IMG/VR virus record: IMGVR_UViG_3300010396_000001
Coordinates: 68,320-132,319 of that record
Source of the DNA: a virus
Taxonomy: Duplodnaviria > Heunggongvirae > Uroviricota > Caudoviricetes
Reading direction: 5' to 3' (one strand)
Length of the DNA: 64,000 bases
The notes beneath the pieces are model-generated. The model made no database searches, was not told the origin of the DNA, and saw nothing but the letters and a program-made list of their open reading frames with translations. How positions within the stretch are numbered: the stretch's first letter is position 1; each line of letters opens with the position of its first letter. A program made the position numbers and the translations under genes. This document shows, piece after piece, positions 5,872 through 43,680 of the stretch.

Positions 5872-5904
5872 TTTCCCCAGGTTCCGCCAGACGATGGGAT
5901 TGCC

Positions 5905-8418
5905 ATGCCCTCAGACAGCGGAACTCCCGCGCCATGGCCAGATGACGCGGGAGTCCCGAGCGAGATCACTTCTTCTTCTGCCGCTAACAATAGCGAGAGA
6001 ACAGATGAGCCGCAACAAGAGCCGCGGAATGTAGCTTTCGGCAGCCTGCCCCGCGCTCACGAGCAGCGCCGCCTGGAGCTGCTGGATGCCGCGGTCGGCT
6101 ATGCCCAGATGGGCTGGCGGATCATCCCGCTGTGCTGGACCGAGGACGACGGGTCCTGCGGCTACAGCGGCCACAACAAGCGCGAGAAGTGCACGAGCGC
6201 GGGCAAGCGCGCAATTCTGGACGACTGGCCGAACCGGGCGACCAGCGACCCGGTGATCGCCGCCCAGTGGTGGCGCCAGCCCTCGGCCCCGCTCGACACC
6301 GAGGAATGGTACCCCCTGGCCAGCATCGGCCTGGTTCTCGGTGAGGACTCCGGCGTCTTCGCCCTGGACGTCGATCCCGAGCACGGCGGCCTGGAGCGCC
6401 TGGAGGCCCTGCAGCAGCGGCACGGGCCGCTGCCTCCGACCCGCGTGCACCAGACGGGCAGCGGCGGCGAGCATTACCTGTGGCGCCATCCGGGGTTCCG
6501 GGTGCACAACCTCAAGCCCTGGGGTAAGGACGCCGGGCTGGACGTCAAGGGCGACCGCGGGTACATCGTCCTGCCGCCCAGCCGCAGCTACAAGGGGGAG
6601 TACACCGTCTCGGCGGTCATGGCCGAGGCCGAGGTGCTGGTCGCGCCCGAGTGGATCCTGGAGCCCCTGCGCAGCGCCAACGCCGCCCAGCACGGCGAGC
6701 GCACCGGCAACGCCGAGGCACTCCCGACCCGGCTGCTCAGCCGGTACACCGAGAGCGCCCTGAAGGGCGAGGCCTTCGCGGTGGCCGGCGCCCCCGACGG
6801 CGACATGAACAACTCGCTGAACAATGCCGCGCTCAAGCTCGGCTCGCTCGGCGCGCACGGCCTGATCAGCGAGGACGAGGCCCGCAACGTGCTGCGTGAT
6901 GCCTGCGTGCAGAACGGCTACATCCACTGGAAGGGCATCGGGGCGTTCGAGGCCACTTTCCGCTCAGGCTGGAAGGCGGGCCTGGCCCGGCCGCGGGACC
7001 TGGCCGGCATCGGGGGCCTGACCGAGCAGGAATGGCCCATCCTGCCCTGGGACGACTTCGGCCTGTCCGACCGCATGGTTGTCTACTACGGCGATCAGAT
7101 GAGGTGGGTAGAGGACTGGCAGACCTGGATGACCTACCGGGCCGGATCCTGGTCCCGGCAGTTCGTCACCGAGGCCGAGCGCCTGGCCGAGACCATGATG
7201 CGGCTGCTGCGGGTCACCGAGAAGCCCCTGTACGCCGGTGACGGTGACGGGGACAACGAGAACTCGCCCCGGCAGAAGTTCGAAGCATGGCTCACCAGGT
7301 CCAGCACCCACGCCAAGGTGGCCTCCACCGTCAAGCTGGCCCGGCACCGGCCGTCGCTGCGGGCCAGCCCGGACCAGTTCGACGGCCAGCCGGCCATGCT
7401 GAACGTGACCAACGGCATCGTCAGCCTGGAGGGCGGCACGATCGCCCCGCACTCGCCGGAGTCCATGCTCACGCTCAAGGCCGCCGCGGACTTCAACCCG
7501 CGGGCCGTGTGCCCCCGCTGGGAGGCCTTCCTCGCCCGGGTGCAGCCCGACCCGGAGATCCGCTCCTACCTGCAGCGGATCACCGGCTACTCGGCGACCG
7601 GCTCGATCCGCGAGCAGGTGTTCTTCCTGCACCACGGCACCGGCGCCAACGGCAAGTCCGTCTTCCACGACGTGGTCATGCACGTGCTCGGCAGCTACGT
7701 CCAGTCCGTCCCGGTCGAGGCGCTGATGGCCTCGGGCGCCGACCGCATCCCTAACGACATCGCCCGCATGGTCGGGCGCCGGTACCTGACCGCCTCGGAG
7801 ACCAAGGCAGGCCGTTTCCTGGATGAGGCGCGGCTGAAGCAGCTCACCGGCGGCGACACTATCTCCGCCCGGTTCATGCGGGGGGAGTACTTCGAGTTCA
7901 AGCCGGTCGGCAAGATCCACCTGATCACTAACCAGCTGCCCAGGCTGTCGGAGGACTCGGCTACCTGGCGCCGGATCCACCTCATCCCCTGGGGCGAGGT
8001 CATCCCGGAGTCCGAGCGCGACGGCCTGCTGGCCGAGCGGCTGATCCGCGAGGAGTCCGAGGGGATCCTGCGCTGGATCGTCGAGGGCGCTACCCAGTGG
8101 TTCGCCATCGGCCTGTCGGCCCCGAGCACGTCGATCGAGGCGAAGGAGGAGTACGAGCGCGACGAGCAGACTCTCGGCCGCTGGATCGAGGAGGCCTGCA
8201 ACGTCTTCGAGGTGACCGATGACACGCGCCTGGCCAGCGGGGGCGAGAGGGGCGTCCTGTATGCCCACTACAAGATGTGGATGCAGACCAACGGCTTCCA
8301 GCCGGTCAACAACCGGAACTTCCACAGCGAGATGAAGACCAAGGGCTTCAGGGAGTCCAAGAGCCACGGGCGCCGGGGCTACCTCGGCATCAGCGTGCGG
8401 ATGGACGCCCAGAGCTAG
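5905..8418 (+). CDS. bifunctional DNA primase-polymerase / P4-D5 family SF3 helicase
   Basis: Prim-Pol N-domain (GWRIIPLCWTEDDGSCGYSGHNKREKCTSAGKRAILDDW), and a Walker A (HHGTGANGKSVF) in a D5_N/P4-alpha-like C-terminal region. Confidence 0.85.
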   Translation: MPSDSGTPAPWPDDAGVPSEITSSSAANNSERTDEPQQEPRNVAFGSLPRAHEQRRLELLDAAVGYAQMGWRIIPLCWTEDDGSCGYSGHNKREKCTSAGKRAILDDWPNRATSDPVIAAQWWRQPSAPLDTEEWYPLASIGLVLGEDSGVFALDVDPEHGGLERLEALQQRHGPLPPTRVHQTGSGGEHYLWRHPGFRVHNLKPWGKDAGLDVKGDRGYIVLPPSRSYKGEYTVSAVMAEAEVLVAPEWILEPLRSANAAQHGERTGNAEALPTRLLSRYTESALKGEAFAVAGAPDGDMNNSLNNAALKLGSLGAHGLISEDEARNVLRDACVQNGYIHWKGIGAFEATFRSGWKAGLARPRDLAGIGGLTEQEWPILPWDDFGLSDRMVVYYGDQMRWVEDWQTWMTYRAGSWSRQFVTEAERLAETMMRLLRVTEKPLYAGDGDGDNENSPRQKFEAWLTRSSTHAKVASTVKLARHRPSLRASPDQFDGQPAMLNVTNGIVSLEGGTIAPHSPESMLTLKAAADFNPRAVCPRWEAFLARVQPDPEIRSYLQRITGYSATGSIREQVFFLHHGTGANGKSVFHDVVMHVLGSYVQSVPVEALMASGADRIPNDIARMVGRRYLTASETKAGRFLDEARLKQLTGGDTISARFMRGEYFEFKPVGKIHLITNQLPRLSEDSATWRRIHLIPWGEVIPESERDGLLAERLIREESEGILRWIVEGATQWFAIGLSAPSTSIEAKEEYERDEQTLGRWIEEACNVFEVTDDTRLASGGERGVLYAHYKMWMQTNGFQPVNNRNFHSEMKTKGFRESKSHGRRGYLGISVRMDAQS

Positions 8419-8429
8419 CTCAGCCACGA

Positions 8430-8466
8430 GGCCCGGCCGGGCAGTCTCCGGCCGGGCCTCTCTTGT
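8430..8466 (+). terminator. intrinsic-terminator-like hairpin downstream of the primase gene
   Basis: Perfect 11-bp stem GGCCCGGCCGG / CCGGCCGGGCC with a 7-nt loop, followed by TCTCTTGT. Confidence 0.45.
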
Positions 8467-8930
8467 GCCCCCGCCTGGTTACTCAAAGGTACATCTCGTC
8501 ACTCTAGAGATGCTGTACTGGAAGTATAGTTTTCCGTATAACCCCGTAACCGGGGGCAGGAGCGCCGCGGGGGCACATAGACCCTCCGGGGGCAGGAGCA
8601 AGTGGATTGTTGAAAGTCCAAGTGCCCCCTCCTAATAGGGGTAGAAAGCCCAGCTCAAGGAGAGATTTCGAGAAACGGGGGCACGGGGGCACATGGGGGC
8701 AGCAGTTTTGCGGTCAGTTTTGATTTTGCTAAATGATCTTGTAGCGACTCAGTCACTAAGAGTGTGCGACAGGACCTGGCGGAAAAATCTGAGCTAACCG
8801 CGAAAATGCTGCCCCCATGTGCCCCCGTGCCCCCGACCATGATCAACAGCTATCTGACGTGGGAATATAGACCATTATCACTGGGGGCACTTTCGGGGGC
8901 ACCGGGGCACTTTCGCGTGCCCCGAGGGAA
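8466..8930. repeat. non-coding region with about 14 copies of the octamer GGGGGCAC / GTGCCCCC in both orientations, including triple tandem copies and a 38-bp inverted repeat. Candidate origin of replication or regulator-binding array.
   Basis: Octamers at 8466, 8555, 8571, 8589, 8622, 8678-8706 (three tandem), 8808-8834 (three, inverted), 8884-8925. The local sequence is AT-richer than its surroundings. Confidence 0.6.
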
Positions 8931-8986
8931 GCTAGACCACCCTCGTGCCGCCGGATAGGCTGGCGGCACCCTAGACGGGAGGCATC

Positions 8987-9181
8987 ATGACCATCAGGAA
9001 GACCGCCTCGGGAGGCCAGGTCACTGGCGTCGAGCCGATGACCGTGGACAGGGAGGTGCTCGGCCCTCCGGTCGAGGACTCGTTCCTGCGCCGCGAGGGC
9101 TCGAAGGCCGAGCCCCCGTGGACCGCTCAGGACGAGCAGGACCTGGCACGGGAGAGCGATGACGGGCCGTCCGCCCTTTAA
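8987..9181 (+). CDS. small hypothetical protein
   Basis: RBS GGGAGG 5 nt before the ATG. 64 aa. Confidence 0.4.
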   Translation: MTIRKTASGGQVTGVEPMTVDREVLGPPVEDSFLRREGSKAEPPWTAQDEQDLARESDDGPSAL

Positions 9182-10139
9182 CCTCGACGAGCTGCTCGGC
9201 GAGGCGCACGTCCGGCACTACCTGCGGTTCATTGACAGCGGGGCCCGTGACTTCTACGTGGCCCCGTCTGCCCCGCACTCGGACCGCTACGTCACCGTGG
9301 AGAGTGCCCCCGCCGACACCAATCAGGTCGAGCGCCGCGGCTGGGGCCCTGACACCTGCTCCAGCTCGTTCGCGCTGGCCGTCCAGCCGCAGTTCGTCTG
9401 GGACGTGTGCAGCTACTACCGGCGGCTGCACGTGCCGTTCTGGGCTACCCGGCGCCAGCTGCGCCTGGCCTACATCCGCCGTGGCGGCCCGTTCAGCCCC
9501 CGGCTGACCTACGCCTTTAAGCAGCTGCTCGATCCCGTCGTCCGGGCGGCCTACGATGCTGCCACTCCGCTGCGGCCGTTCTTCCTGGATGCCGATACCC
9601 AGGAGGCCGTCAAGCGCGCAGCGGCGCTGGAGGCGGCCCGGCGCACCGCCGAGCAGGGTATCCCGGCGACGGTAGAGGAGGTCCTGGAAGAGCGCGGCAT
9701 CCGCCAGCGCCGGGAGAGCCTGCGCGATGCGATGCGCGAGGGACGGCCGCCGCAGGAGCTGCCCGAGGATGACCGCCCCCTGGACGGCCTGCCGCTGGGC
9801 TCGTCGATATCACCGTGGGAGCGCCAGTGGTCCTGGTTCGCCCGCGGCAAGAGCATCGGCTGGCTGGCCCCGGTCAGCCGGCTGGAGGAATGGCAGCGGC
9901 TGCTGCGCCGCGAGCTGGCCGCCCGCGAGATCACCATCAGCTTCGCCGTGGGCTTCTGCCCCGGCTTCCGCTGGTATGCCTGGCGCCCGCGGGAGGGCAC
10001 CGGTATAGTCTTCCTCGGCCTCGACGCAGTGCCTGACGAGGTCCTGGCCATGCAGGCCGTGGCTGATTACCTGTCTTTCTCGTCTCTTTCGTCCCCGCGT
10101 CACAAGTCCCCTCGTAATAATCGTCCACAGGGAGAATAG
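9159..10139 (+). CDS. hypothetical protein with a degenerate J-domain-like segment (no HPD motif)
   Basis: SYYRRLHVPFWATRRQLRLAYIRRGG...FKQLLDPVVRAAYDA aligns to J-domain helices II-IV, but the HPD motif is replaced by RGGPF. Confidence 0.45.
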   Translation: MTGRPPFNLDELLGEAHVRHYLRFIDSGARDFYVAPSAPHSDRYVTVESAPADTNQVERRGWGPDTCSSSFALAVQPQFVWDVCSYYRRLHVPFWATRRQLRLAYIRRGGPFSPRLTYAFKQLLDPVVRAAYDAATPLRPFFLDADTQEAVKRAAALEAARRTAEQGIPATVEEVLEERGIRQRRESLRDAMREGRPPQELPEDDRPLDGLPLGSSISPWERQWSWFARGKSIGWLAPVSRLEEWQRLLRRELAAREITISFAVGFCPGFRWYAWRPREGTGIVFLGLDAVPDEVLAMQAVADYLSFSSLSSPRHKSPRNNRPQGE

Positions 10140-11036: not shown

Positions 11037-11248
11037 CGCTCATTCACCAGCTCGCGCACAGCGAGCAGCGCCGGTCCCGCAAGGAGCCCGGCTTCACGCT
11101 GCTTGGCGTCAGCAGCCAGGGCCACGGCCTGCTGGCCTGGTTCTTCCTGTGGCGCCACCGCGGCCACAACGTGGTCCACATGAGCGACTGGCGGTGCTGC
11201 GGCTACATGTGCAAGACCTGCCCCGGGCACCCGATCTCCAGCGGCTGA
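11033..11248 (+). CDS. small hypothetical Cys-containing protein
   Basis: GTG start overlapping the upstream stop. Its own stop overlaps the dnaE ATG (TGATG). Confidence 0.4.
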   Translation: MTLIHQLAHSEQRRSRKEPGFTLLGVSSQGHGLLAWFFLWRHRGHNVVHMSDWRCCGYMCKTCPGHPISSG

Positions 11249-14200
11249 TGACGTTCGCCCACCTGCATAACCACACGGACTACAGCGCGCTCGACGGCCT
11301 CACGTTCCCCGCTGAGGCTGCCGGGCGCGCTGCGTCCCTGGGGCAGTCAGCCCTGGCGATTACCGATCATGGCGTGTGCTCCGGCCACCCGGCCCACCAG
11401 AAGGCCTGCGACGACGAGGGCATCAAGCCGATTTTCGGCATGGAGGGCTACTGGGTCCCCGACCGGCTGGAGCGGCCCGCGGCCGGGGACAAGGAAGCCC
11501 AGCAGCGCCTGCGGGCCAACCGGCACCTGATCCTGCTGGCCGCCTCGGACAAGGGCCTGCGCGACTTGTGGGCGCTGTCCACCGAGGCTTACGCGAGCGG
11601 CTTCTACTACCGGCCCCGCTGTGATGACGAGCTGCTGGAGCGCTACGGCAGCGACCTGATCGTGACTACTTCCTGCCTGGGCGGCCTGGTCTCCCGTGAC
11701 CTGCTGGACGGCAGCCTGGATGCGGCCGGCCAGCGCCTGGCCCGCTGGCGCGACATGTTCCCCGGCCGGTTCTACCTGGAGATCCAGGGAAATGCCCTGC
11801 CCGAGCAGCGTCGCCTTAACATGCTGCTCGCCCAGATGGGCGACATCCTGGATATTCCGCTGGTAGCTGCATCTGACGCTCACTACCCCTCCGCGGCCGA
11901 ATCGGAATTGCACCGGCTGTGGATGAGCTGCCAGACTAGTCCTGCGAATGATGCGTACTGGAATTACATTCACATGCAGGATGAGAGTGAAGTTCGTGAT
12001 CTACTTGGTTACCTCGATCCTCGTTGCGTTGATAGTGCTATTCATAATAGCTTCGAGATAGCCGAGCAATGTAATGCCAGAATAGGCGGGATAGCTGATC
12101 CGCCGCACTTTACTGCTTCTCATGAGGAAGACGCCAGCCTGCTGCTGGATCTCTGCATTGCTGCCTGGGACCGGATTCGCGTGCCCGGCCGCAAGCAGGA
12201 GTACCGCGACCGGCTGGAGCGTGAGTGGCAGCTGGTGTCCAGAAAGCACCTGGCCGGCTGCTACCTGATCGTTCACGACGTGATCAGGTATGCCAGGTCC
12301 AGGGGCGAGCTGCCCGGCCCTGGGCGGGGGAGTGCCGCAGGCTCGCTGATGTCCTACCTGCTCGCCATTACCTCCATGGACCCGGTCCGCACCGGCCTGA
12401 TGTTCGAGCGCTTCGTGACGCCGGGCCGCACCAGCCTGCCGGACTTCGACATGGACTTCGCCAGCTCTGCGCGCACCCACATCCAGGACTACGTCATCAG
12501 CAAGTACGGCGCCGAGCGCGTGGTCCGGGTCGGCACCCACATGCGCTACCGGTCCAAGGCCGTGCTCAACAAGCTGTTCTCCATCCTGCGGCCGGACGTC
12601 ACTGACGACCCGCCGCGGATTGCCTCGATCATCGACGAGGCCGAGAGCCATACCGCGGGCCTGGGCCTGCCGTGGGACGACCTGATGGAAGAGGCTGCCT
12701 CGCCGCTGGAGGCCTTCATCGAGCGCTACGCGGGCGTCTTCGAGGCCGCCAGCCGCCTGGTCGGCCACCTCAACTCCTACGGCCAGCACCCGGCCGGGCT
12801 GGTGATCTCCACGAGCCAGGACCTGGCCTCCTCGCTGCCGATGCGCACCGGGGACAAGGGCCAGCAGATCAGCCAGTGGGACTTCCGCACCCTCGACACC
12901 CTCGGGCTGCTCAAGCTCGACTTCCTGACCCTGCGCACCCTGGACTCCATCCAGCAGGCCATCAGGCTCGTCAGCGTCCGCACCCAGCAGCCGCCCGACC
13001 CGCTGAGCTGGGAGGCCGAGCACGACGACCCGCAGGCCTGGGACGAGATCTGCGCGGGCAACACCCTCGGCATGTTCCGGATCGAGACCAGCCTGGGGAT
13101 GGACTTCTGCCGCCGGATGAAGCCCCGGTCACTGCCCGACCTGGGCGCCCTGATCGCCCTGGTCCGCCCCGGTCCCCGCAACTCGGGGGTGGCCGAGGCC
13201 TACCTGCGGCGCCGGGCCGGACTGGAGGAGGTGACCTATCCTCATCCCCTGCTGGAGCCCTACCTCGGGCGCAGCTACGGGCTGATGATCTACCAGGAAG
13301 ACATTCTCAGCGCCTGCCGCGTTCTCGCCGGATATGACGACGCTGAAGCCGATGAAGTCCGCAGCATCCTCGGAAAGAAAAAGAAAGAGAAGATCCCGGC
13401 GGCAGGAGAGAAGTTCGTCCGCCGCTGCTTCGAGCACAGCGGGATCAAGCCGGAGGACGGGGAGAAGATATTCGCGCAGATAGCGGAGTTCGGAAAGTAC
13501 GGATTCAATCTTTCCCACGCCTACTCCTATGCGACGCTCTCCTACTGGACGGCCTGGCTGAAGGCACACTATCCCGTCGAGACGATTACCGCGATCCTGT
13601 CCACGCTGAGCGACAAGGACCGCATGCCTGCTTTCGCGGTGGAAGCACGGCGCATGGGCATTACCGTGCTGCCGCCTGATGTCCGGATTTCCGGCGCGGG
13701 CTTTACTGCCGAGGCCCTGTCCATCCGCTACGGGCTGTCATCAATCAAGGGACTCGGGCCCGCGGCCCTGACCTCCATCACCGCGGCGCAGCCCTACCAG
13801 TCCATGGATGACTTCGTCGCCCGCTCGAAGGCGGACGCGGGAGTGATCTACGCCCTGGCCCAGGCCGGGGCCCTGGACCCGCTGGTCGCCTCGCGCCGGG
13901 CCCTGGTGATGCGGCTGCAGGCCGACCGGTCGGGGGACGCCACCCGGTGCACCTTCAAGGACGAGAGCGTGCACGGGCCCAATGAGCTGCCCTGTACCTT
14001 CGACTGGGCCTCAGAGCCCGAACCTGAGCCGAGGTATGGCAGGAAAGGTCAGCCACTCAAGGTCATCCCGCTGAAGATCCCGGCGAGATGCACCCGCGCG
14101 TGCCGCCACTACTCCCCGCCGGCCCTGTCGTTCGCCGGGGTTCCGGAGTACTCAGCCGGGGAGCTATGGCGGCTGGAGACCGACATCTACGGCACCTGGA

Positions 14201-14586
14201 TGACCCCGGCCGCGTTCGAGGAGATCGACGCCATCCAGCCGGGGCTGCGCATGCACTCGCGCAATGCCGCCCGGCTGCTGCCCGGCGCTCCCCGCGGCAG
14301 CTACCCGGTCATCGCAGTGCACGACGGACTGCGCTCGGCCATCACCCGGCGGGGCTCGGTGATGTGGTGGCAGCGCCTGGTCACCGAGGTCTCCGTGCTG
14401 TCGGTTGCCGTCTTCTCGCCGCGCCGCGAGGATGACCCTGACCTGCCCTCAGCGGTCCGCTACCTGCAGCGGGGCACCGTGGTGCTGGCCGAGGTCGTGA
14501 AGGACTCATACGTCACCCCCTCAGGCCAGCCTCGTGTATCGTGGCGGCTGGAGAGCGTCGCTCCGCTGAAAGGTTCATTGTCATGA
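11248..14586 (+). CDS. dnaE: DNA polymerase III alpha subunit (DnaE-type, PHP domain N-terminus)
   Basis: HLHNHTDYSALDG PHP motif, GLLKLDFLTLRTLD palm motif and FNLSHAYSYATLSYWTAWLKAHYP. The true start is probably the ATG at 11248 (MTFAHLHNH) rather than the ORF start at 11149. Confidence 0.9.
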   Translation: MTFAHLHNHTDYSALDGLTFPAEAAGRAASLGQSALAITDHGVCSGHPAHQKACDDEGIKPIFGMEGYWVPDRLERPAAGDKEAQQRLRANRHLILLAASDKGLRDLWALSTEAYASGFYYRPRCDDELLERYGSDLIVTTSCLGGLVSRDLLDGSLDAAGQRLARWRDMFPGRFYLEIQGNALPEQRRLNMLLAQMGDILDIPLVAASDAHYPSAAESELHRLWMSCQTSPANDAYWNYIHMQDESEVRDLLGYLDPRCVDSAIHNSFEIAEQCNARIGGIADPPHFTASHEEDASLLLDLCIAAWDRIRVPGRKQEYRDRLEREWQLVSRKHLAGCYLIVHDVIRYARSRGELPGPGRGSAAGSLMSYLLAITSMDPVRTGLMFERFVTPGRTSLPDFDMDFASSARTHIQDYVISKYGAERVVRVGTHMRYRSKAVLNKLFSILRPDVTDDPPRIASIIDEAESHTAGLGLPWDDLMEEAASPLEAFIERYAGVFEAASRLVGHLNSYGQHPAGLVISTSQDLASSLPMRTGDKGQQISQWDFRTLDTLGLLKLDFLTLRTLDSIQQAIRLVSVRTQQPPDPLSWEAEHDDPQAWDEICAGNTLGMFRIETSLGMDFCRRMKPRSLPDLGALIALVRPGPRNSGVAEAYLRRRAGLEEVTYPHPLLEPYLGRSYGLMIYQEDILSACRVLAGYDDAEADEVRSILGKKKKEKIPAAGEKFVRRCFEHSGIKPEDGEKIFAQIAEFGKYGFNLSHAYSYATLSYWTAWLKAHYPVETITAILSTLSDKDRMPAFAVEARRMGITVLPPDVRISGAGFTAEALSIRYGLSSIKGLGPAALTSITAAQPYQSMDDFVARSKADAGVIYALAQAGALDPLVASRRALVMRLQADRSGDATRCTFKDESVHGPNELPCTFDWASEPEPEPRYGRKGQPLKVIPLKIPARCTRACRHYSPPALSFAGVPEYSAGELWRLETDIYGTWMTPAAFEEIDAIQPGLRMHSRNAARLLPGAPRGSYPVIAVHDGLRSAITRRGSVMWWQRLVTEVSVLSVAVFSPRREDDPDLPSAVRYLQRGTVVLAEVVKDSYVTPSGQPRVSWRLESVAPLKGSLS

Positions 14587-26468: not shown

Positions 26469-26736
26469 AGTAGACGAGATCATCAGCCAGTTCGTCGAGG
26501 GCATCGAGCCGGGCGGGCATCATTTCCTGCTGTACTGCCATCCGCTGGTATATCGCAGGCTCCTGCAGGCGGCGGATGAGGATGCGCGGAGCTACCTGTC
26601 GCTCACTCCTCCTTTTTACAACGGCACCCACGGGCACGGGGAGATTCGCGTAGAGGCATCGATGCCTCCCGGTGCCTGGCAGCTGTTCGAGAACAGGAAG
26701 CTGATGAGCAGCGGAGTTCTCGCCGGGGAGGCCTGA
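26461..26736 (+). CDS. hypothetical protein
   Basis: In-frame ATG at 26461. Stop overlaps the terminase start. Confidence 0.4.
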   Translation: MLKVDEIISQFVEGIEPGGHHFLLYCHPLVYRRLLQAADEDARSYLSLTPPFYNGTHGHGEIRVEASMPPGAWQLFENRKLMSSGVLAGEA

Positions 26737-28856
26737 TGGCCATCGGGGGACTGCAGCCTGCTTTTGACCCCCTGGCGATGATGTCATCATTCGGGGAACT
26801 GCCGATTCCTGACCCGATCACCTTCGTGATCGGGGAGAGGTGGCTGAATAAGCCCAACCTGTACCCGCGCCAGGCAACATTCCTGAAGATCCTTTTCCTC
26901 CGCACTGATCTCCTGACGGATTATGATCACGAGGTCATTGCCGAGTGGATTCAGATGTTCCGGGACTCCAACCCTGATGACGAGGAGCGCGAGGACCAGT
27001 TCGACGCCCACACCCTGGGCATCCAGCCGGATATCTACGAGCGCATCGCCTGGTGCCAGGAACGCGGGTACAAGTGGTTCCGCGAGCTGATCCTCGCCAT
27101 CGGGCGCCGCGGGTCGAAGGGCTACGTAAGTGCCCTGGCGATGTCGTATGTCCTGTGGAATTACCTCGCCCTCGGTAATCCGCAGGAGCATTACGGGATC
27201 GCCCAGTCCAAGCAGATGGAAGTCATGATCTTCGCGGGGAAGCGAGATCAGGCGAAAGCCCACCTGTGGCGCGACCTCCACGACGTCATCGTGGAAAGCG
27301 AGTGCTTCACCGGCTCGATGGGCCGCAATTTCCTGTCCAAGGACGACGTGCTCCTGCTCAGCCTGTATGCCCCGTTCGACTGGGTGCGCATGCAGCGGCA
27401 GGCCGCCAAGGGGATTTACGGCGGCCAGGACATGGCCACCTTCCAGATCATGCCCAAGGAGTCCAACCCGCTGGCTGCCCGCGGGGGCGCCGGCTTCATC
27501 TTCGGCTTCGACGAGGCCGCCCACGTCAAGACCACCGGCATGACGCGCGAGTTCGGCGAGGTGTACAAGGCCGCCAAGCCCGCCCTCGACCAGTTCGGCC
27601 GGGACTCGTTCAGCTGCTTCCCCAGCTCCACCTGGGAGATGACCGGCCAGTTCTACGAGCTGTGGGTACAGTCCCTCCAGGATGACCCGCGGCAGCCCGG
27701 CGAGCCCCTGTTCCCCAACAAGCTCATGCTGCAGCTGTCCAGCTGGCACCCCTACGAGGACTGGGACCGCGCCCATCTGCTCCCGCTGTTCCCGCCCGGC
27801 TACGAGGGAGACCTCGGTGAGTACGCCGGGCAGGACCTGCCCGTGCTGCCGCCGCTGAAAGGCGCCATCCAGGCCTTCGACGAGGAAATGGAGAAGGAGG
27901 AGCGCGCTAACCCTGACACCTTCGCCGTGGAGCGCCGCTCGGCCTGGGCCACCGCGCTGGATGCTTACCTCAACCCGGCCAAGGTCAAGGAGATCTTCAC
28001 CCCGTTCACTGCCCGGCTGGAGCAGAACGGGCGCCCCGAGCTGACCGAGCAGGCCCGCGGGCCGCTCTCGATCGCCTACATCGCTCACGGCGACCCGGCC
28101 ACCGTCAACCACCGGTTCGGGTTCTGCCTCGGTCACGCCGAGACCGGCACCGACGGCATGCAGCACGCGGTCATCGACCTGGTCAACCACTGGGACCCGG
28201 CCGACTTTCCCGATCACACGATTGACTATGACCTGGTCATCGGGTGGATCTTCGAGAGTGTCGTGAAGATGTTCCAGCCGAATGAGCTGTCATTTGACCA
28301 GTTCAATGTCGTGTCCACCGTGCATGCCCTGCGGAAGAAGATTCACGACGAGCCGCTTCAGAAAAGCATCATGGTGTACGAGTCCAAGGCTACGCAGCTC
28401 ATCAACTGGGCTCGGTGGGAATGCAGCAAGGCGGCCATAAACATGGGCTACGTGCATTCTTACTCTTACCCGGAGCTGGCCTCCGAGCTGAAATTCGCCC
28501 GCAAGCCCGAGGGCATCAACAAGGTTGTTCCCCCGGACTCCGGGCCGTGCGTCACCATCGACATCGCTGATGCCTTCACGCACGTGGTCTTCTCGCTGCT
28601 GGCCGAGCAGATGAACGTCTACCTGAGTGCTGAGCTGCGCAGCCTGCGGCCGGGGACCGCCATGTCGCCCGGAGCCACGGACCCCTTCCGCCGCTTCGAT
28701 CCCGCTGATGCCCTCAGCAACCCCATGGCGGTGGCCATGTCCATGCAGGGCCGCGGGGCACTGGCCCGCGGGATGCGGCCGGGCTCGGGTGGCATGCCGC
28801 GCTCCTCGGTACCCCAGCGCGGCGCCCTGGCCCGCCGGGGACGGCATCGCTCCTAG
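26736..28856 (+). CDS. terL: terminase large subunit (ATPase + nuclease)
   Basis: Walker A-like LILAIGRRGSKGY, Walker B FIFGFDEAAH, LYPRQATFLK N-terminal motif. 706 aa. Confidence 0.8.
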   Translation: MAIGGLQPAFDPLAMMSSFGELPIPDPITFVIGERWLNKPNLYPRQATFLKILFLRTDLLTDYDHEVIAEWIQMFRDSNPDDEEREDQFDAHTLGIQPDIYERIAWCQERGYKWFRELILAIGRRGSKGYVSALAMSYVLWNYLALGNPQEHYGIAQSKQMEVMIFAGKRDQAKAHLWRDLHDVIVESECFTGSMGRNFLSKDDVLLLSLYAPFDWVRMQRQAAKGIYGGQDMATFQIMPKESNPLAARGGAGFIFGFDEAAHVKTTGMTREFGEVYKAAKPALDQFGRDSFSCFPSSTWEMTGQFYELWVQSLQDDPRQPGEPLFPNKLMLQLSSWHPYEDWDRAHLLPLFPPGYEGDLGEYAGQDLPVLPPLKGAIQAFDEEMEKEERANPDTFAVERRSAWATALDAYLNPAKVKEIFTPFTARLEQNGRPELTEQARGPLSIAYIAHGDPATVNHRFGFCLGHAETGTDGMQHAVIDLVNHWDPADFPDHTIDYDLVIGWIFESVVKMFQPNELSFDQFNVVSTVHALRKKIHDEPLQKSIMVYESKATQLINWARWECSKAAINMGYVHSYSYPELASELKFARKPEGINKVVPPDSGPCVTIDIADAFTHVVFSLLAEQMNVYLSAELRSLRPGTAMSPGATDPFRRFDPADALSNPMAVAMSMQGRGALARGMRPGSGGMPRSSVPQRGALARRGRHRS

Positions 28857-28925: not shown

Positions 28926-30668
28926 TCAGGCCCGCAGGTCCTGCGCGGGCCGGGCCGTGCGGACCACCGGGCGCACCGGCTGGTCCGGGGCCGGGACCTC
29001 GAACGGCCAGGGCGCGTCACGGCCGCGCTCCAGCAGGCTCATCTGGGTGAAGGCGCCGTCACCCAGTCCGGCCAGCAGGTGGCGGGTTGGCCCCGTCGGG
29101 ATCGCCCCGTAGGTGTACCCGGCCAGGTTCCACATGTAGACCGGGGTGTCCTTCGGGATGAGCTTGTCGATCTCCGTCGGTGCCCGGCCGCCCCGGCCGT
29201 AGCCGTGCATGTTCGAGGGCAGCAGGCCCGCCCGGGTCTGCTCGTCGGTGATGATGACGACCCGGTCATGCCCGTGCAGGTGACTGACCACGGCCGAGGG
29301 GATGTCGGTGCCCGACTCCAGCCGGCCAGACCCGTCGCCCTTGCCGAACCGCTCAACGACCTTCAGCACGGACTCGCCCCTGCTGAAGGGCACGGCGCCG
29401 GAGCGCCCGCTGAACTCGACCAGGTCGGCATGCTGCGCCCGGACGGCCAGCGCCGCGCCGAAGATGGCCGCGCCATCGGCCCAGTTCATCTTCGAGCGCT
29501 TGCTCATGTTCTTTTCCCACATGGACAGCGAGCGGTCCACCAGGATGAGCGTGTACCCGCTCAGGGCCGGGACATGCGACAGGGACTGGTTCAGCGCCCG
29601 CTCCAGGGGATAGGCCCACCGCAGTGACGCTGCGGCCCGGTAGGCCGCCAGGAAGCGGAACGGGAACTGCCGCGAGTTCGCGACCGCCTCGGGGGCCGAC
29701 AGGCGCATGGCCACCTGCTCCGCCACCTCGTCGGGCACTCCCGCCTGGTCGAAGTTGCGCAGGTTGCGCAGCAGGGCCATGTAGCCCATCGACGGGATGC
29801 AGGCCTGCCACGCCGCTGCGTCCATCGGGCCCTGCAGCCAGCCGGAGACCGCCTCCCACTTGATGCCCGCGTCGGCGATGCGCTGGGCGCCGCCGGGCGA
29901 GACCAGGAACGCGCGCCGCTCCTCCCGCGGCATCGCGAAGATGCGCCGGGCCGCCGCGATGACCGGCAGGTGCTCCAGCATGGCCGCGTCCGGGCTGGAG
30001 TGCACCCGGTCGGTGATGTCGCGCCCGTGCCGGGTCATGATCGCGTAGCGGTACAGGTGATCGCGCCAGGTGCCGTAGGCCTCGCGATTGTACCGGGGCC
30101 GCGACAGCTCGATGACGTCTCCGAATCGCAGCGCCGCCTCGGCCGAGTCGTCACGCAGCAGGGCCCGCTCGGTGTACAGGCGGAAGACGCCGTCGGCGAT
30201 CCCGCGCTGGAACGCATGCGGGGCCTTGCGGCCGTAATTGGCCAGCCAGTAGGCCCAGGCCTCGCCGGGCTCATCCCCGCGCTGCAGCACGCCGTCGAGC
30301 AGGAAGCGCCCGTAGGGCGCCTGCCTGGCGACGCTGCGGGCGCGGACGACCTCGGCGGCGGCCAGGACCGGGGCCGAGCGCATGTTGCCCTCCAGCCGCA
30401 GCCAGGGCAGGAAGCCGCGCATCCAGTCATAGTCAGCCAGGCCGACCTGCCGGATCAGGTCGCGGAAGCGGCCGTCGCGGGTCATGGCGTTCTCGTGGTG
30501 GGTGTCCTCGCCGACGAAGTTCGAGACGCCCAGCATGAACAGGGCGCTCTTCTCGTCGCGGGCATAGCCGGGATGGCCGAGCGCGGTGCGCCCCGAGGGA
30601 TCGGCCTCGGCGGCCAGCGGGCCGCGGACGGCGGCCTGGACCTTCTGCTTGTTGAACTTGCCGGGCAT
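28926..30668 (-). CDS. rsr: Ro60/Rsr-like RNA-binding protein (TROVE-like N-region + C-terminal vWA with MIDAS)
   Basis: 581-aa minus-strand CDS from the ATG (reverse complement of 30666-30668) with RBS CAGGAGGAG. C-terminal LILVDRSLSMW (DxSxS). Sits next to tRNA-like ncRNA modules. The upstream part of ORF 28926..30830 is rejected as translation of the ncRNA. Confidence 0.6.
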   Translation of the reverse strand: MPGKFNKQKVQAAVRGPLAAEADPSGRTALGHPGYARDEKSALFMLGVSNFVGEDTHHENAMTRDGRFRDLIRQVGLADYDWMRGFLPWLRLEGNMRSAPVLAAAEVVRARSVARQAPYGRFLLDGVLQRGDEPGEAWAYWLANYGRKAPHAFQRGIADGVFRLYTERALLRDDSAEAALRFGDVIELSRPRYNREAYGTWRDHLYRYAIMTRHGRDITDRVHSSPDAAMLEHLPVIAAARRIFAMPREERRAFLVSPGGAQRIADAGIKWEAVSGWLQGPMDAAAWQACIPSMGYMALLRNLRNFDQAGVPDEVAEQVAMRLSAPEAVANSRQFPFRFLAAYRAAASLRWAYPLERALNQSLSHVPALSGYTLILVDRSLSMWEKNMSKRSKMNWADGAAIFGAALAVRAQHADLVEFSGRSGAVPFSRGESVLKVVERFGKGDGSGRLESGTDIPSAVVSHLHGHDRVVIITDEQTRAGLLPSNMHGYGRGGRAPTEIDKLIPKDTPVYMWNLAGYTYGAIPTGPTRHLLAGLGDGAFTQMSLLERGRDAPWPFEVPAPDQPVRPVVRTARPAQDLRA

Positions 30669-30719
30669 GTGCTCCTCCTGCAGCAAGGGGGAGGGCCCTG
30701 GCTTTCCCTCATAACGGGA

Positions 30720-30935
30720 CAGCGACATGACCGAGAACGAGTCGGCGAAAGAACCTGCTAGACCATTGCTCTGCCAAGCTGAGCTACGTCCCGGTTTCCC
30801 GGGACGACAGGACTTGAACCTGCGACCCACGGTGGGATGAAGTAACTCTCACCTGCAGTCCGGTCACATCGCTATCCAGTTATGGGGCCCCGGAACGGGA
30901 TAGGAGCGCAGCGAAAACGATTCGGCGGCGGCATG
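30720..30935 (-). ncRNA. YrlA-type Y-RNA-like ncRNA with a permuted tRNA-like module (T-arm, GAAA-capped acceptor-like hairpin, D-arm)
   Basis: Minus strand reads GCAGGTTCAAGTCCTGT (T-arm), CGTCCCGG-gaaa-CCGGGACG, TAGCTCAGCTTGGCAGAGCA (D-arm) at 30755-30835. Flanked by gaagtaaC...cagtccgg and CCGA-nAACGAg-TCGG hairpin motifs. Confidence 0.5.
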
Positions 30936-31534: not shown

Positions 31535-32473
31535 ATGTTCTGGTTCTTTCTGGCGGTAGTTGTATTCCTGGGATGCCTCGGCTGCGTAGTGGGCGCTTTG
31601 GCTTCCCAGGATAAGAGGATGGCGGCTGGCGGCGCGGCAGTTATCTGCCTGATCGTTGCTCTTATCCTGTTCTTCATCAGCGGCATCAGGGAAGTGCCGA
31701 ATAAGAGCATCGGCGTCCCGACCTCGATTGGCAAGGTGGGTACCGTCATGCGGCCCGGCCTGCACCATACGGCGCCGTGGACGCGGGTGAACATTCTTCC
31801 CGAGACCGTTCAGACGACGACCTTCGAGGGCTGCCAGGGCGCATTCTGCACGGGCAGCCATCCCACGCACGGGAACTGCCTGGAAGTCCGGATCGGCGGC
31901 CAGCAGACCGCCTGCCTGGACGTCACCATCCAGTGGCGCATTCTCGATTCCGGCGGCCCCGGCCTGTACAACAACTACGGCTCCTCGGGCAACGGCAGCG
32001 TGATCAGCGACATCACCAACGCCGTGGTGGTCCGCGAGCTGAAGTCCGTGGTCAACGCGCAGATGGGCGACTATAACCCGATCCAGGACGTGGCCGCGAA
32101 CGCGACCAGCGGGAACAGCCAGTTCTCCAAGTTCGGCCCGAAGGTCCTCGCGCAGATGCGCAAGGACCTGGCTGGCCGGATCAAGGTGCTGAGCCTGTAC
32201 ATGCCGCTGCTGCGGTACGACGAGGCGACGCAGGCGCGCCTGAATTCCATTCAGGCGCAGTATGCCGAGACGGCCATTGCCGAGCAGCTGAAGAAGACCA
32301 ACGAGGCGCAGGCAGCGGCCAATGCTGCCATCACCAGGTCGCTCAGCCAGGCGGACCTGACTTACCTGTGCCTGCAGATTGTGCAGAATGCAGAGAAGTC
32401 CGGGTACGGCGGCCTGCCGGCCACGCTCAACTGCGTCGGGTCAGGTTCCGGCCTGGTGGCCGTCAAGGGCTGA
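31535..32473 (+). CDS. SPFH/band-7 (stomatin/prohibitin/HflKC-like) membrane protein
   Basis: N-terminal TM (FWFFLAVVVFLGCLGCVVGALA), then IREVPNKSIGVPTSIGKVGTVMRPGLHHTAPWTRVNILPETVQTTTF, typical of band-7 cores. C-terminal Ala/Gln-rich coiled coil. Confidence 0.7.
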   Translation: MFWFFLAVVVFLGCLGCVVGALASQDKRMAAGGAAVICLIVALILFFISGIREVPNKSIGVPTSIGKVGTVMRPGLHHTAPWTRVNILPETVQTTTFEGCQGAFCTGSHPTHGNCLEVRIGGQQTACLDVTIQWRILDSGGPGLYNNYGSSGNGSVISDITNAVVVRELKSVVNAQMGDYNPIQDVAANATSGNSQFSKFGPKVLAQMRKDLAGRIKVLSLYMPLLRYDEATQARLNSIQAQYAETAIAEQLKKTNEAQAAANAAITRSLSQADLTYLCLQIVQNAEKSGYGGLPATLNCVGSGSGLVAVKG

Positions 32474-32597
32474 GCTGGTTCTCTGGCGTCACGCTGCTAT
32501 CATCATTGTCAGTCAGCTGACGATGAGCACGGGCCCCGGGTTAGGCGCTGCTGACCCGGGGCCCTCGTGTTTCCTGCATTCCGGGGAGGAGAGGCAA

Positions 32598-32846
32598 ATG
32601 TCGGCATCATCCTACGGATGCACTGTCTGCGGTCATCCGAAAGCACTGCACTCGAACGGGAGGACAGCCTGCCGGGCCACCGGGTGCAGCGTGTCGCCGG
32701 ACGGCGCCCCGTGCCCGCACTTTGTTGGCGCCGTGCCCGAGCAGCAGCTGGAGGGGAGCTTAGTTGGCGGCTCCCAGGATCACCACGCCGGTCGGCTCGG
32801 CCGCCGCGGGCGCGGCCGTGGCCACGATCTCCTTCTGGCTCCTTAG
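32598..32846 (+). CDS. small zinc-ribbon-like protein (uncertain)
   Basis: RBS GGGGAGGAGAGG. CTVCGH...CRATGC...CPH motif. The C-terminal tail is low complexity and overlaps the next gene. Confidence 0.3.
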   Translation: MSASSYGCTVCGHPKALHSNGRTACRATGCSVSPDGAPCPHFVGAVPEQQLEGSLVGGSQDHHAGRLGRRGRGRGHDLLLAP

Positions 32847-33249
32847 CCTGTGGCCCGCCTGGCACCATGCTCCCCTGGAGGTCCAGGGCGCTACTGAGAC
32901 GCTGATCGGCGCCGGGACGACCTACATGGCCGGGTGGCTCAAGGTCGTGCTCACGCCGGGCCAGAAGGCCGCTATGGAGCTGACCTCGGGCCCGCTGCCC
33001 ACCCTGCAGCCCAGCCAGCCGCTTCAGCGCGTGCTGTCGGCCGCCGCGGACCTGCCGAGCCCCGTCCAGCCCTGGACGGGCCCCGTGCCTGATGAGCTGA
33101 CGCAGCGGCTGCGTGCCGAGCTGGACGGGGCGTTCAGCTCGCCGGGCCGGCATGATCTCAGGGCTCCTGGCGCATCGCCCGCAGCTGGGCCCAGCACGTC
33201 CCCGCCGGAGGAGCAGCTGCCCCTCCCGCCTCATTCCGGTTCATCCTGA
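32764..33249 (+). CDS. membrane protein (TTG start, one TM helix), uncertain
   Basis: TTG directly after an in-frame stop, with RBS GGAGGGGAG 8 nt upstream. High GC3. AAVATISFWLLSLWPAW hydrophobic segment. Confidence 0.4.
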   Translation: MAAPRITTPVGSAAAGAAVATISFWLLSLWPAWHHAPLEVQGATETLIGAGTTYMAGWLKVVLTPGQKAAMELTSGPLPTLQPSQPLQRVLSAAADLPSPVQPWTGPVPDELTQRLRAELDGAFSSPGRHDLRAPGASPAAGPSTSPPEEQLPLPPHSGSS

Positions 33250-33505
33250 CTCCTCGCCAGCCGGGCTCCAGGTAGGCCGCCAGGGCCTCCAGGCTGCCGA
33301 TGATATTGTCCAGCCCGGCCCGCGCAGTCGTCCAGCGCATCTGCTCGGTGGCCACGTACTCCCGCAGCTGCATAGCCGACTGGCTGGCATACAGGAGCGT
33401 ATGACGTGTCTCCGTGACCTGGCCGCGAGTCAGCAGCACATGATCGTTTGCCCGGTGCAGGGCCCGCAGCTCGGCCAGCAGCTGCATCTCGCGGTCGTGG
33501 CTCAC
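33158..33505 (-). CDS. hypothetical protein (last gene of the minus-strand operon)
   Basis: GTGA overlap with the upstream HTH gene. The C-terminal part of the long antisense-looking ORF 33158..34180 has protein-like sequence from here only. Confidence 0.35.
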   Translation of the reverse strand: MSHDREMQLLAELRALHRANDHVLLTRGQVTETRHTLLYASQSAMQLREYVATEQMRWTTARAGLDNIIGSLEALAAYLEPGWRGVRMNRNEAGGAAAPPAGTCWAQLRAMRQEP

Positions 33506-37458: not shown

Positions 37459-37983
37459 ATGGATGATGAGCGGCCAATTCTAGGACTTGATGTAGACGGC
37501 GTCCTTAATGCCCTTAATCAGGGCGCCACGCCGCCCGGGTGGGAGTTCACCACGGTTCGCGGCAACCTGCCGATCTGCTATAACCCCCGCCACGGCGAGC
37601 AGCTGCAGAAGATCGCCTCCGACGGCGGCGCCGAGCTGGTCTGGTGCACCATCTGGGAGGACCTGGCCAACGAGCACATCGCCCCGCTGGTCGGCCTGCC
37701 GCAGCTGCCCTGGGTCACGATGGACGAGTCCATGGCCGCCGTGATCGCCGAGCGGCGCATCAAGTTCAGCCAGGCCATCCCGGTAGGCGCCGTCAAGGCA
37801 CGGGCCATGGCCGTCTATGCCGCGGGGCGCCCGGTGTGCTGGCTGGAGGACGAGCCGGACGCGCCCGCCGAGTTCAGCTCCTACCCGGCCCCGCACCTGG
37901 TGGTGCAGACCGACTCGTTCGAGGGGCTGCAGGATATCCACCTTGCCGCGGCAGCAGCATGGCTGGCGTCGCTGCGCGCCTGA
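37459..37983 (+). CDS. HAD-superfamily phosphatase-like protein
   Basis: ILGLDVDGVL (DxDGx motif I of the HAD fold) at the N-terminus. Confidence 0.6.
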   Translation: MDDERPILGLDVDGVLNALNQGATPPGWEFTTVRGNLPICYNPRHGEQLQKIASDGGAELVWCTIWEDLANEHIAPLVGLPQLPWVTMDESMAAVIAERRIKFSQAIPVGAVKARAMAVYAAGRPVCWLEDEPDAPAEFSSYPAPHLVVQTDSFEGLQDIHLAAAAAWLASLRA

Positions 37984-38014
37984 GGTGCTGCCCGGAAGCC
38001 TTCAGGAGGTACCG

Positions 38015-43456: not shown

Positions 43457-43680
43457 TCGAGACTGCCGACCATGCCGATCCCCTTGCTGCAGGCGGCTAC
43501 GTGGCTGCCGTCGGCAGCTTCCTGCTCGCCGCCATCGGCTTCGAGCCGGAGGGAAAGGCCGAGGTGATGATAGAGATCGGCGCCGATCCCGAGCCGGACA
43601 AGGCGCGCATCATCCTGAGCTGGCCGCTGCCTGAGCAGGGGCCCGCCACCACCGGCCAGGGGTGCCCGGAAGCCATGTGA
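43453..43680 (+). CDS. small hydrophobic protein (TTG start), uncertain
   Basis: TTG overlapping the upstream stop. High GC3. Its stop overlaps the GTG of the next giant gene (GTGA). Confidence 0.3.
   Translation: MIETADHADPLAAGGYVAAVGSFLLAAIGFEPEGKAEVMIEIGADPEPDKARIILSWPLPEQGPATTGQGCPEAM

Follow-up and report, generated by a model that had tools for sequence, protein, structure and literature searches.

The question which this locus raises is what function resides in the 568 bp that separate the stop codon of a primase-helicase gene (8418) from the next start codon (8987). The gap, 8419-8986, locates to a window of 64 kb, meaning the whole stretch of DNA analysed here, which covers ~40% of the genome of a ~160-kb phage with ~97 kb lying outside. 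An earlier note on this DNA had proposed the gap to be the cognate replication origin of the adjacent primase-helicase, and the computational work reported here supports this proposal by the layout of its short repeats (iterons), by the arrays found in metagenomic relatives and by the annotated replication origin of phage A2. The gap was therewith assigned as the probable replication origin of the phage, being of the iteron type that is served by a self-loading superfamily 3 (SF3) primase-helicase, an assignment which draws on the repeat array, a large palindrome and its AT-rich centre, the domains and predicted fold of the protein, the conservation of position among relatives and the layout of the A2 origin. 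The initiator would in this case bind the iterons via the winged helix of the primase-helicase itself.

Four open reading frames (ORFs) of 56-64 codons are found in the gap, which had previously been regarded as artefacts of the repeats. Their GC content at third codon positions (GC3) amounts to 0.52-0.63 as compared to 0.78-0.95 for the genes of the window, and because these values are far below those of the window genes the gap was concluded to be non-coding, in line with the former view. The gap harbours an array of the octamer GGGGGCAC, with the iteron consensus being cGGGGGCAc/g and the flanks being barely conserved. Nine of the 14 exact copies of GGGGGCAC or its complement that are present in the window reside within 8465-8902. 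When up to one mismatch was allowed, 17 copies (nine exact and eight with one mismatch) were identified in 8419-8986, as compared to 0.88 expected per 568 bp from the 98 copies in the 63.4 kb outside the gap, where the motif occurs at chance level within the window; the former count of about 14 copies was thus a fair one. No k-mer array of comparable size was found in any other 400-bp stretch of the window. The iterons are arranged as follows:

8465..8629: left outlying iteron cluster, with iterons at 8465 (-), 8552 (+), 8569 (+), 8588 (+) and 8622 (-); it includes two copies of CCGGGGGCAGGAGC and the 40%-GC tract 8480-8539
8677..8702, + strand: three tandem iterons, GGGGGCAC, GGGGGCAC and GGGGGCAG
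8809..8834, - strand: three inverted iterons, CTGCCCCC, GTGCCCCC and GTGCCCCC
8883..8924: right outlying iteron cluster, with iterons at 8883 (+), 8895 (+), 8903 (+) and 8917 (-); it includes two copies of GGGGCACTTTCG

Both the three tandem copies with their three mirrored counterparts and the duplicated direct repeat, i.e., GGGGCACTTTCG at 8884-8895 and at 8904-8915, were hence found where they had been noticed before. The right cluster in addition pairs palindromically with 8819-8836, across a 56-nt spacer. The two opposed triplets themselves form the ends of a large palindrome, to which the following features belong:

8676..8835: large interrupted palindrome of 160 nt, proposed origin core, with the arms 8676-8727 and 8784-8835
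8703..8808: AT-rich centre, proposed DNA-unwinding element (DUE), 45% GC as compared to 68% for the window
8706..8717, + strand: TTTTGCGGTCAG, left copy of a core inverted repeat that is semi-conserved and reads TTTCYGCAGGTCAG in relatives
8727..8741, + strand: TGCTAAATGATCTTG, a 15-mer identical to one in the centre of the palindrome of relative L007
8794..8807, - strand: CTAACCGCGAAAAT, right copy of the core inverted repeat

The palindrome arms comprise 52 nt each, are 88% complementary and are located 56 nt apart, whereby the outer 26-29 nt of each side consist of three iterons whose orientation is opposite between the sides. When folded as single-stranded DNA, the palindrome yields -64.7 kcal/mol (z = -11.9). 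The lower GC content ascribed to the region was identified likewise, with minima of 40% at 8480-8539 and 8700-8759 as compared to 68% for the window; the lowest-GC 40-mer of the 64 kb (8704-8743, 32.5% GC) lies inside the palindrome centre, and all of the lowest-GC 40-mers locate to 8700-8724 or 8501-8503. The left core repeat TTTTGCGGTCAG was recognized by reading the sequence, as a pattern scan allowing up to three mismatches missed the window copy because of an indel relative to the consensus. Taken together, the gap possesses many short iterons downstream of the putative initiator gene, which oppose each other across an AT-rich region, as is the layout of an origin.

Two smaller hairpins flank the array:

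8428..8460, + strand: GC-rich hairpin directly 3' of the primase stop codon, with a perfect stem of 13 bp and a loop of 7 nt
8945..8969: hairpin of two one-mismatch iterons, GTGCCGCC and GGCGGCAC (-20.3 kcal/mol, z -3.7)

The former had been described as a terminator; the hairpin is real and terminator-like (-34.9 kcal/mol as RNA), but it lacks a T-run, and a scan for the intrinsic-terminator consensus called none, this hairpin included. The latter precedes, by 6 nt, the ribosome-binding site that serves the following gene, and it may be regulatory.

The protein considered as initiator is encoded directly upstream:

5905..8418, + strand: primase-helicase gene, 837 aa, proposed initiator, with Prim-Pol (archaeo-eukaryotic primase, AEP), D5_N, SF3 helicase (DUF5906) and C-terminal winged-helix domains
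8248..8397, + strand: codons of the winged-helix core (residues ~782-831), proposed iteron reader

Pfam matches were obtained for Prim-Pol (PF09250, 6e-32), D5_N (1.2e-21) and DUF5906 (8.4e-8), while no Pfam match to a Toprim domain was found in the protein. A profile built from the 837-aa protein and six relatives identified PriRep5 of the Staphylococcus aureus pathogenicity island (SaPI) SaPI5 (7OLA) as best match in the PDB (E 2.5e-18), with the alignment extending through the C-terminal domain. The full-length AlphaFold2 (AF2) model has a pLDDT (predicted local distance difference test) of 82.7, and Foldseek matched it to the African swine fever virus (ASFV) PrimPol and to 7OLA (template modelling score, TM, of 0.69 on the target); 7OLA and ASFV C962R are named among the PDB matches. 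The winged helix consists of a helix at 782-795, a second helix at 803-812 and a β-hairpin wing at 817-826. The protein thus combines a helicase of the D5_N/P4-family SF3 kind with a C-terminal winged-helix domain that is predicted to bind the origin. It had before been termed a P4-type primase-helicase, of which the claimed C-terminal homology holds, because the 7OLA profile match runs through the C-terminal domain and the AF2 model and its Foldseek matches agree, whereas the primase domain is an archaeo-eukaryotic Prim-Pol and not the Toprim primase of P4.

Seven metagenomic relatives for which DNA was available (L003-L009), with primases being 43-65% identical to that of the window, served as comparison set. 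All seven share one gene order, which is FEN (flap endonuclease), a small ORF, the primase, the gap, a conserved small ORF of 64-86 aa, two genes of ~300-370 aa and DnaE; RecA follows DnaE on those contigs that are long enough to include it. A repeat array at or just after the primase stop codon was identified in seven of seven relatives, with the motif differing from genome to genome:

L003: GGGGCGC, 5 found, 0.37 expected; and TGTCCCA, 7 found, 0 expected
L004: GGGGGCGC, 12 found, 0.56 expected
L005: AGGGCACTTAG, 11 found, 0.67 expected
L006: GAGAGGCTC, 9 found, 0 expected
L007: TTCGTGCGCA, 12 found, 0.19 expected
L008: GCTCGCATC, 13 found, 0.8 expected
L009: AGTGCAGA, 11 found, 0.7 expected

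These motifs occur mostly or only right after the primase stop codon, and in L005 and L009 the arrays start at or even inside the 3' end of the primase gene. What is conserved is hence the position in all relatives and the architecture in most of them, but not the octamer, whose conservation in related phages had been named as a check. Eight genomes yielded eight motif sets, every one of them concentrated directly behind the primase, which is a small sample for statistics on covariation; a fixed array position combined with a changing motif is the behaviour expected of initiator-specific iterons. Conservation within the primase is lowest over the C-terminal ~85 residues, with the winged helix varying most, and the wing sequence KSHGRRG is found only in the three genomes with a GGGGC[AG]C motif, a correlative observation across eight genomes.

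Large interrupted palindromes built from the genome's own motif were found in six of the seven relatives (L004, L005, L007, L008, L006 and L003). Their centres are markedly AT-rich in L005 and L007, while those of L008 and L004 are barely below the mean of the locus. The 15-mer TGCTAAATGATCTTG is common to the AT-rich centres of the window and of L007, whose primases are 50% identical; it is the longest word shared by both centres, as compared to a maximum of 10 in 20 shuffles, and an alignment of the two centres with MAFFT did not bring it into register. Scanning IMG/VR with this 15-mer gave >119 unrelated matches; it is uninformative as a database probe, and what counts is solely that it occupies corresponding places in the window and in L007. 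Genomes with wholly different iterons retain the core inverted repeat, TTTCYGCAGGTCAG / CTGACCTGSGAAA, and this retention suggests a second, conserved recognition element. Its sites are 8706-8717/8794-8807 in the window, 10343/10574 in L005, 5725/6751 in L006 and 5194/5451 in L007.

The behaviour of the arms bears on the idea that the gap encodes a structured non-coding RNA, or that the hairpin acts in the transcript as an attenuator or processing site. The 160-nt hairpin is very stable and hairpin-type Rfam matches were obtained below threshold; these however are without exception eukaryotic miRNA-precursor models far under the gathering score (32 versus 90 bits), nothing in the gap having scored above threshold in the Rfam scan. 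Furthermore, the arms change between relatives by replacement of entire repeat motifs, which affects both strands and extends beyond the palindrome. Such wholesale arm replacement therefore fits protein-binding repeats and not compensatory RNA evolution, which renders an RNA function very unlikely.

As the proteins to be considered for binding also include transcriptional regulators, the repeats may be viewed as operator sites for a regulator of the promoter or promoters of the downstream operon (8987 onward), with the palindrome representing symmetric operators. The gap indeed lies between the terminator-like hairpin and the first gene of this operon, the degenerate iteron pair forms its hairpin just before the ribosome-binding site, L003 carries a helix-turn-helix (HTH) gene at the corresponding position and the + strand of the gap contains four copies of a second motif, [AC]TAGAC. 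This explanation is nonetheless unlikely, considering that the genes bordering the gap in the window include no regulator, that the octamer occurs at chance level elsewhere in the window, that a scan for sigma-70-like promoters found none and that the arrays of L005 and L009 begin at or inside the primase 3' end; moreover, the distribution of 17 sites across 500 bp, with an AT-rich core in their midst, resembles an origin more than an operator, and the homologous position in A2 is annotated as origin. The second motif, in full [AC]TAGAC(C/G), is located at 8577, 8867, 8932 and 8971, as compared to 15 + strand copies across the 64 kb; two of its copies sit within the 17-nt repeats CGTGGGAATATAGACCA and CGAGGGAAGCTAGACCA, and in L003 ATAGAC and CTAGAC also occur upstream of the orthologous small ORF (13468-13515). 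It may be a promoter or an auxiliary site.

P4, which had been invoked as model for the locus, possesses two iteron regions, ori and crr, of which crr adjoins the alpha gene. Its alpha protein carries a DnaG-type Toprim primase, unlike the AEP Prim-Pol (PF09250) of the window protein, and its two iteron regions are separated; a single cluster was seen in the 64 kb covered of the ~160-kb genome. The closest characterized systems were identified to be SaPI Rep with its ori, phage A2 and pRN1 instead of P4. In the GenBank record of phage A2 (AJ251789) a rep_origin is annotated at 32208-32717, starting 28 bp before the stop codon of the primase ORF35, so that it begins, like the candidate origin of the window, at the 3' end of the primase gene. 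Over residues 382-834 of the window protein, the helicase/winged-helix half of ORF35 shows 36% identity (E 7e-70), and the A2 origin contains the 10-nt iteron ACGGGAGGAT three times and its complement four times around a centre of 16% GC. A2 differs in being a temperate phage of 43 kb from Lactobacillus casei, a low-GC Firmicute host; the alignment is confined to the C-terminal half of the primase, the A2 origin partly overlaps ORF36 and has fewer repeats, and it is devoid of a long and near-perfect palindrome with 52-nt arms, its longest inverted-repeat arms being ≤24 nt and 71-84% complementary.

SaPI Rep was reported to be a self-loading SF3 helicase whose C-terminal winged helix binds iterons of 5-6 nt immediately downstream of rep, with half of the iterons on each side of an AT-rich centre, in opposed directions and with an element-specific sequence (PMC9371898). 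PriRep5 (7OLA) is the best solved sequence homologue of the window protein. The SaPIs however are phage satellites of Firmicutes of ~15 kb with 6-12 iterons, whereas the ~160-kb phage encodes its own DnaE, RecA and FEN and has ~17 octamer iterons in three clusters as well as a long palindrome. For the pRN1 protein ORF904, a stem-loop of ~100 nt downstream of the gene, behind a terminator hairpin, was reported to be needed for replication, the structure of which is conserved between relatives while its sequence is not; similar stem-loops were noted in phages (PMC4234260, a paper that also mentions the P4 repeats and SV40). The pRN1 system, with which Bordetella phage BIP-1 is grouped, shares with the window the protein domain order of Prim-Pol, SF3 helicase and winged helix, and the window resembles pRN1 in possessing the hairpin 8428-8460 followed by the 160-nt palindrome, with palindromes of different sequence in six of seven relatives. 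On the other hand, pRN1 is an archaeal plasmid (Sulfolobus) whose origin was reported to be without iterons, whereas the stem arms in the window are made of iterons and further iterons are located outside the stem. With the SF3 helicases of eukaryotic viruses, SV40 large T antigen and papillomavirus E1, two hexamers are loaded head-to-head at short inverted elements that adjoin an AT-rich tract. This mode of working is alike, but the origin-binding domains are unrelated and membership in this group is not claimed.

Based on these comparisons, a reaction sequence for initiation can be suggested. Initially, the C-terminal winged helix of the protein encoded at 5905-8418 would bind the GGGGGCAC iterons, whereby the opposed triplets at 8677-8702 and 8809-8834 would bring two helicase assemblies to face each other over the AT-rich centre (8703-8808). 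Next, the centre would melt, a process that cruciform extrusion of the 52-nt arms may assist, and the Prim-Pol domain would prime the exposed strands, with the primers made at the origin presumably being extended by the phage's own DnaE. The outlying clusters (8465-8629 and 8883-8969) would either raise the local initiator concentration or serve as cis enhancers or for copy control in the manner of P4 crr.

An extension of this scheme assumes a two-layer origin, in which fast-evolving iterons are read by wing and helix of the C-terminal winged helix, while a conserved core, consisting of the TTTCYGCAGGTCAG repeat and the AT-rich 15-mer that genomes diverged by 50% have in common, forms the second layer; the long palindrome, extruded as a cruciform, would allow two hexamers to be loaded. 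The conserved core would then be recognized by a conserved part of the replisome, e.g., the Prim-Pol or the helicase domain. This extension is tentative, and we consider it possible but doubtful.

Several observations weigh against the assignment of the gap as origin. In L004 and L006 a distance of 242-1080 bp separates the two arms, and a gene lies between them or overlaps them, while the palindrome of the second L003 motif lies within the HTH gene, because of which the compact geometry of iterons flanking a DUE is not universal in the clade. GC skew, which the earlier note had named as a further check, gave no signal at the region: resolved to 1 kb, the cumulative skew curve is without inflection at 8.7 kb. 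What links the winged helix to the motif is a correlation across ~8 genomes. As the gap must also house the promoter for the operon downstream, some of the repeats may have a regulatory role. Finally, since 64 kb of ~160 kb were covered, a second or even the primary origin may be located elsewhere. The latter consideration leads to the explanation that the array is bound by the primase-helicase without being the initiation site, acting as a cis-acting enhancer, in copy control (handcuffing, crr-like) or as an initiator sink, while the true origin resides elsewhere. Besides the coverage of the genome, the presence of both ori and crr in P4, with crr beside the alpha gene, the three separate iteron clusters in the gap and the distant arms of L004 and L006 are in its favour. 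We regard this explanation as rather improbable, as the window's AT-richest DNA falls precisely into the space that the opposed triplets enclose, the layout is shared by elements that are origins, namely those of the SaPIs and the one annotated in A2, and no second cluster was found within the 64 kb.

The assignment of the gap as probable origin also has to be seen in the context of the neighbouring genes, the following of which are relevant:

8987..9181, + strand: conserved 64-aa ORF, first of the downstream replication operon, with the N-terminus MxIRKTASGGQVTG
11149..14586, + strand: DnaE-type DNA polymerase III alpha (Pfam PHP, DNA_pol3_alpha, finger, HHH_6)
26736-28856: terminase-like gene, the sole one found (PHROG 2, E 1.4e-9), 18 kb downstream of the candidate origin

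Repeat arrays are known from packaging (pac/cos) sites, genome termini and parS-like partition centromeres, and the ORF at 37817-43456 possesses ParB-like domains. A function of this kind is extremely unlikely for the gap, given that the terminase-like gene is 18 kb distant, that the contigs of five relatives assemble straight across the region and that in every relative the array accompanies the primase gene and not genes for packaging or partition. Pfam and PHROG gave no function for the neighbouring proteins of 145, 64, 326 and 297 aa, because of which no alternative iteron-binding protein was nominated, although one may be among them. The 64-aa ORF bounds the gap and has orthologues in L003 (13593-13787), L007 (5572-5832), L009 (from 8114) and L006 (7082-7297), with the N-terminus M-x-IRKT-x-SGGQVTG-x-E being strongly kept in all relatives. 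Further away, the opposite strand carries a 634-aa gene at 28926-30830 whose PHROG match is to an 'RNA-binding protein' (E 2.2e-34), two giant ORFs occupy 37817-43456 (1879 aa, several ParB-like domain matches) and 43662-49862 (2066 aa, with a NUDIX-like segment), and a 1266-aa ORF at 57665-61465 is without PHROG match. Near a strand switch, at 33100-33500, CAGCTGC forms a cluster of 7 copies per 400 bp, which resembles - strand coding sequence.

Among the relatives, insertions next to or within the array were observed. In L003 a 266-aa gene with a C-terminal HTH (12639-13439, - strand) is inserted after the primase; within its coding sequence, seven TGTCCCA/TGGGACA repeats make up a palindrome (12771-12871), while the remaining 21 kb of this locus are free of the motif. 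Small ORFs of a zinc-finger-like CxxC...CxxC type are located within or right after the array in L004 (3875-4195) and L009 (7499-8100), the former (CYTCGGSG...CGECEGTG) having a GC3 of only 0.67 and parting two iteron triplets by ~300 bp. In L006 a 370-aa ORF (5943-7055, GC3 0.80) lies between the iteron arms and continues in frame through the right arm, where GC3 falls to 0.62 (6693-6842), i.e., origin-like repeats are embedded in coding sequence.

More distant P4-family primase genes from many metagenomes (loci L041, L043, L044, L048, L049, L051, L053, L055, L057, L059 and L080) carry CCGTCA iterons within the first ~130 bp after the stop codon. At most of these loci they are positioned at ~+24/+33 on one strand and at +102/+111/+120 on the other, the spacing usually being 9 bp, while in L049, L051 and L080 the first set begins ahead of the stop codon; the winged helices encoded at these loci are alike (KRFSE..L..RGF...NT..ARGF).

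Searches for closer counterparts were negative. Megablast of 5900-9200 against 50,697 phage records gave no match; metagenomes are the sole known source of the clade. The iteron triplet was likewise without match when IMG/VR was scanned for exact occurrences, the protein search of viral contigs returned one distant locus only, and that of genome contigs returned relatives of ≤41% identity, none of which clearly belongs to the clade, and no host assignment. Actinobacterial DnaA boxes were not found in the gap. G-quadruplex formation by runs of five G was rejected as a conserved feature, as the motifs of the relatives are not G-rich, and ends of a transposon or miniature inverted-repeat transposable element (MITE) were rejected, as the arm motif is also scattered outside the palindrome.

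To our knowledge, a mapped origin is available for very few of the phages that infect high-GC Gram-positive hosts, and none has been mapped in this ~160-kb clade. The gap provides a precise candidate origin together with a proposed protein-DNA recognition pair, and would extend a known design, of the SaPI, A2, P4 and pRN1 kind, to an uncultured clade of ~160-kb high-GC soil phages. As the most useful product of this work, the eight natural variants, i.e., one protein family with eight iterons, form a series for studying how winged helices of the RFX/P4 type read DNA, and they could aid the construction of orthogonal replicons or of origin-decoy phage resistance of the PER (phage-encoded resistance) type. 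The findings furthermore support an annotation rule, namely that for D5_N/P4-family primase-helicases in phages and satellites opposed iterons should be sought just after the stop codon. If the two-layer origin holds true, it would unite two kinds of origin, the stem-loop one of pRN1 and the iteron one known from SaPI and A2, and the wholesale swapping of iterons would define replicon-specificity groups among co-occurring ~160-kb soil phages.

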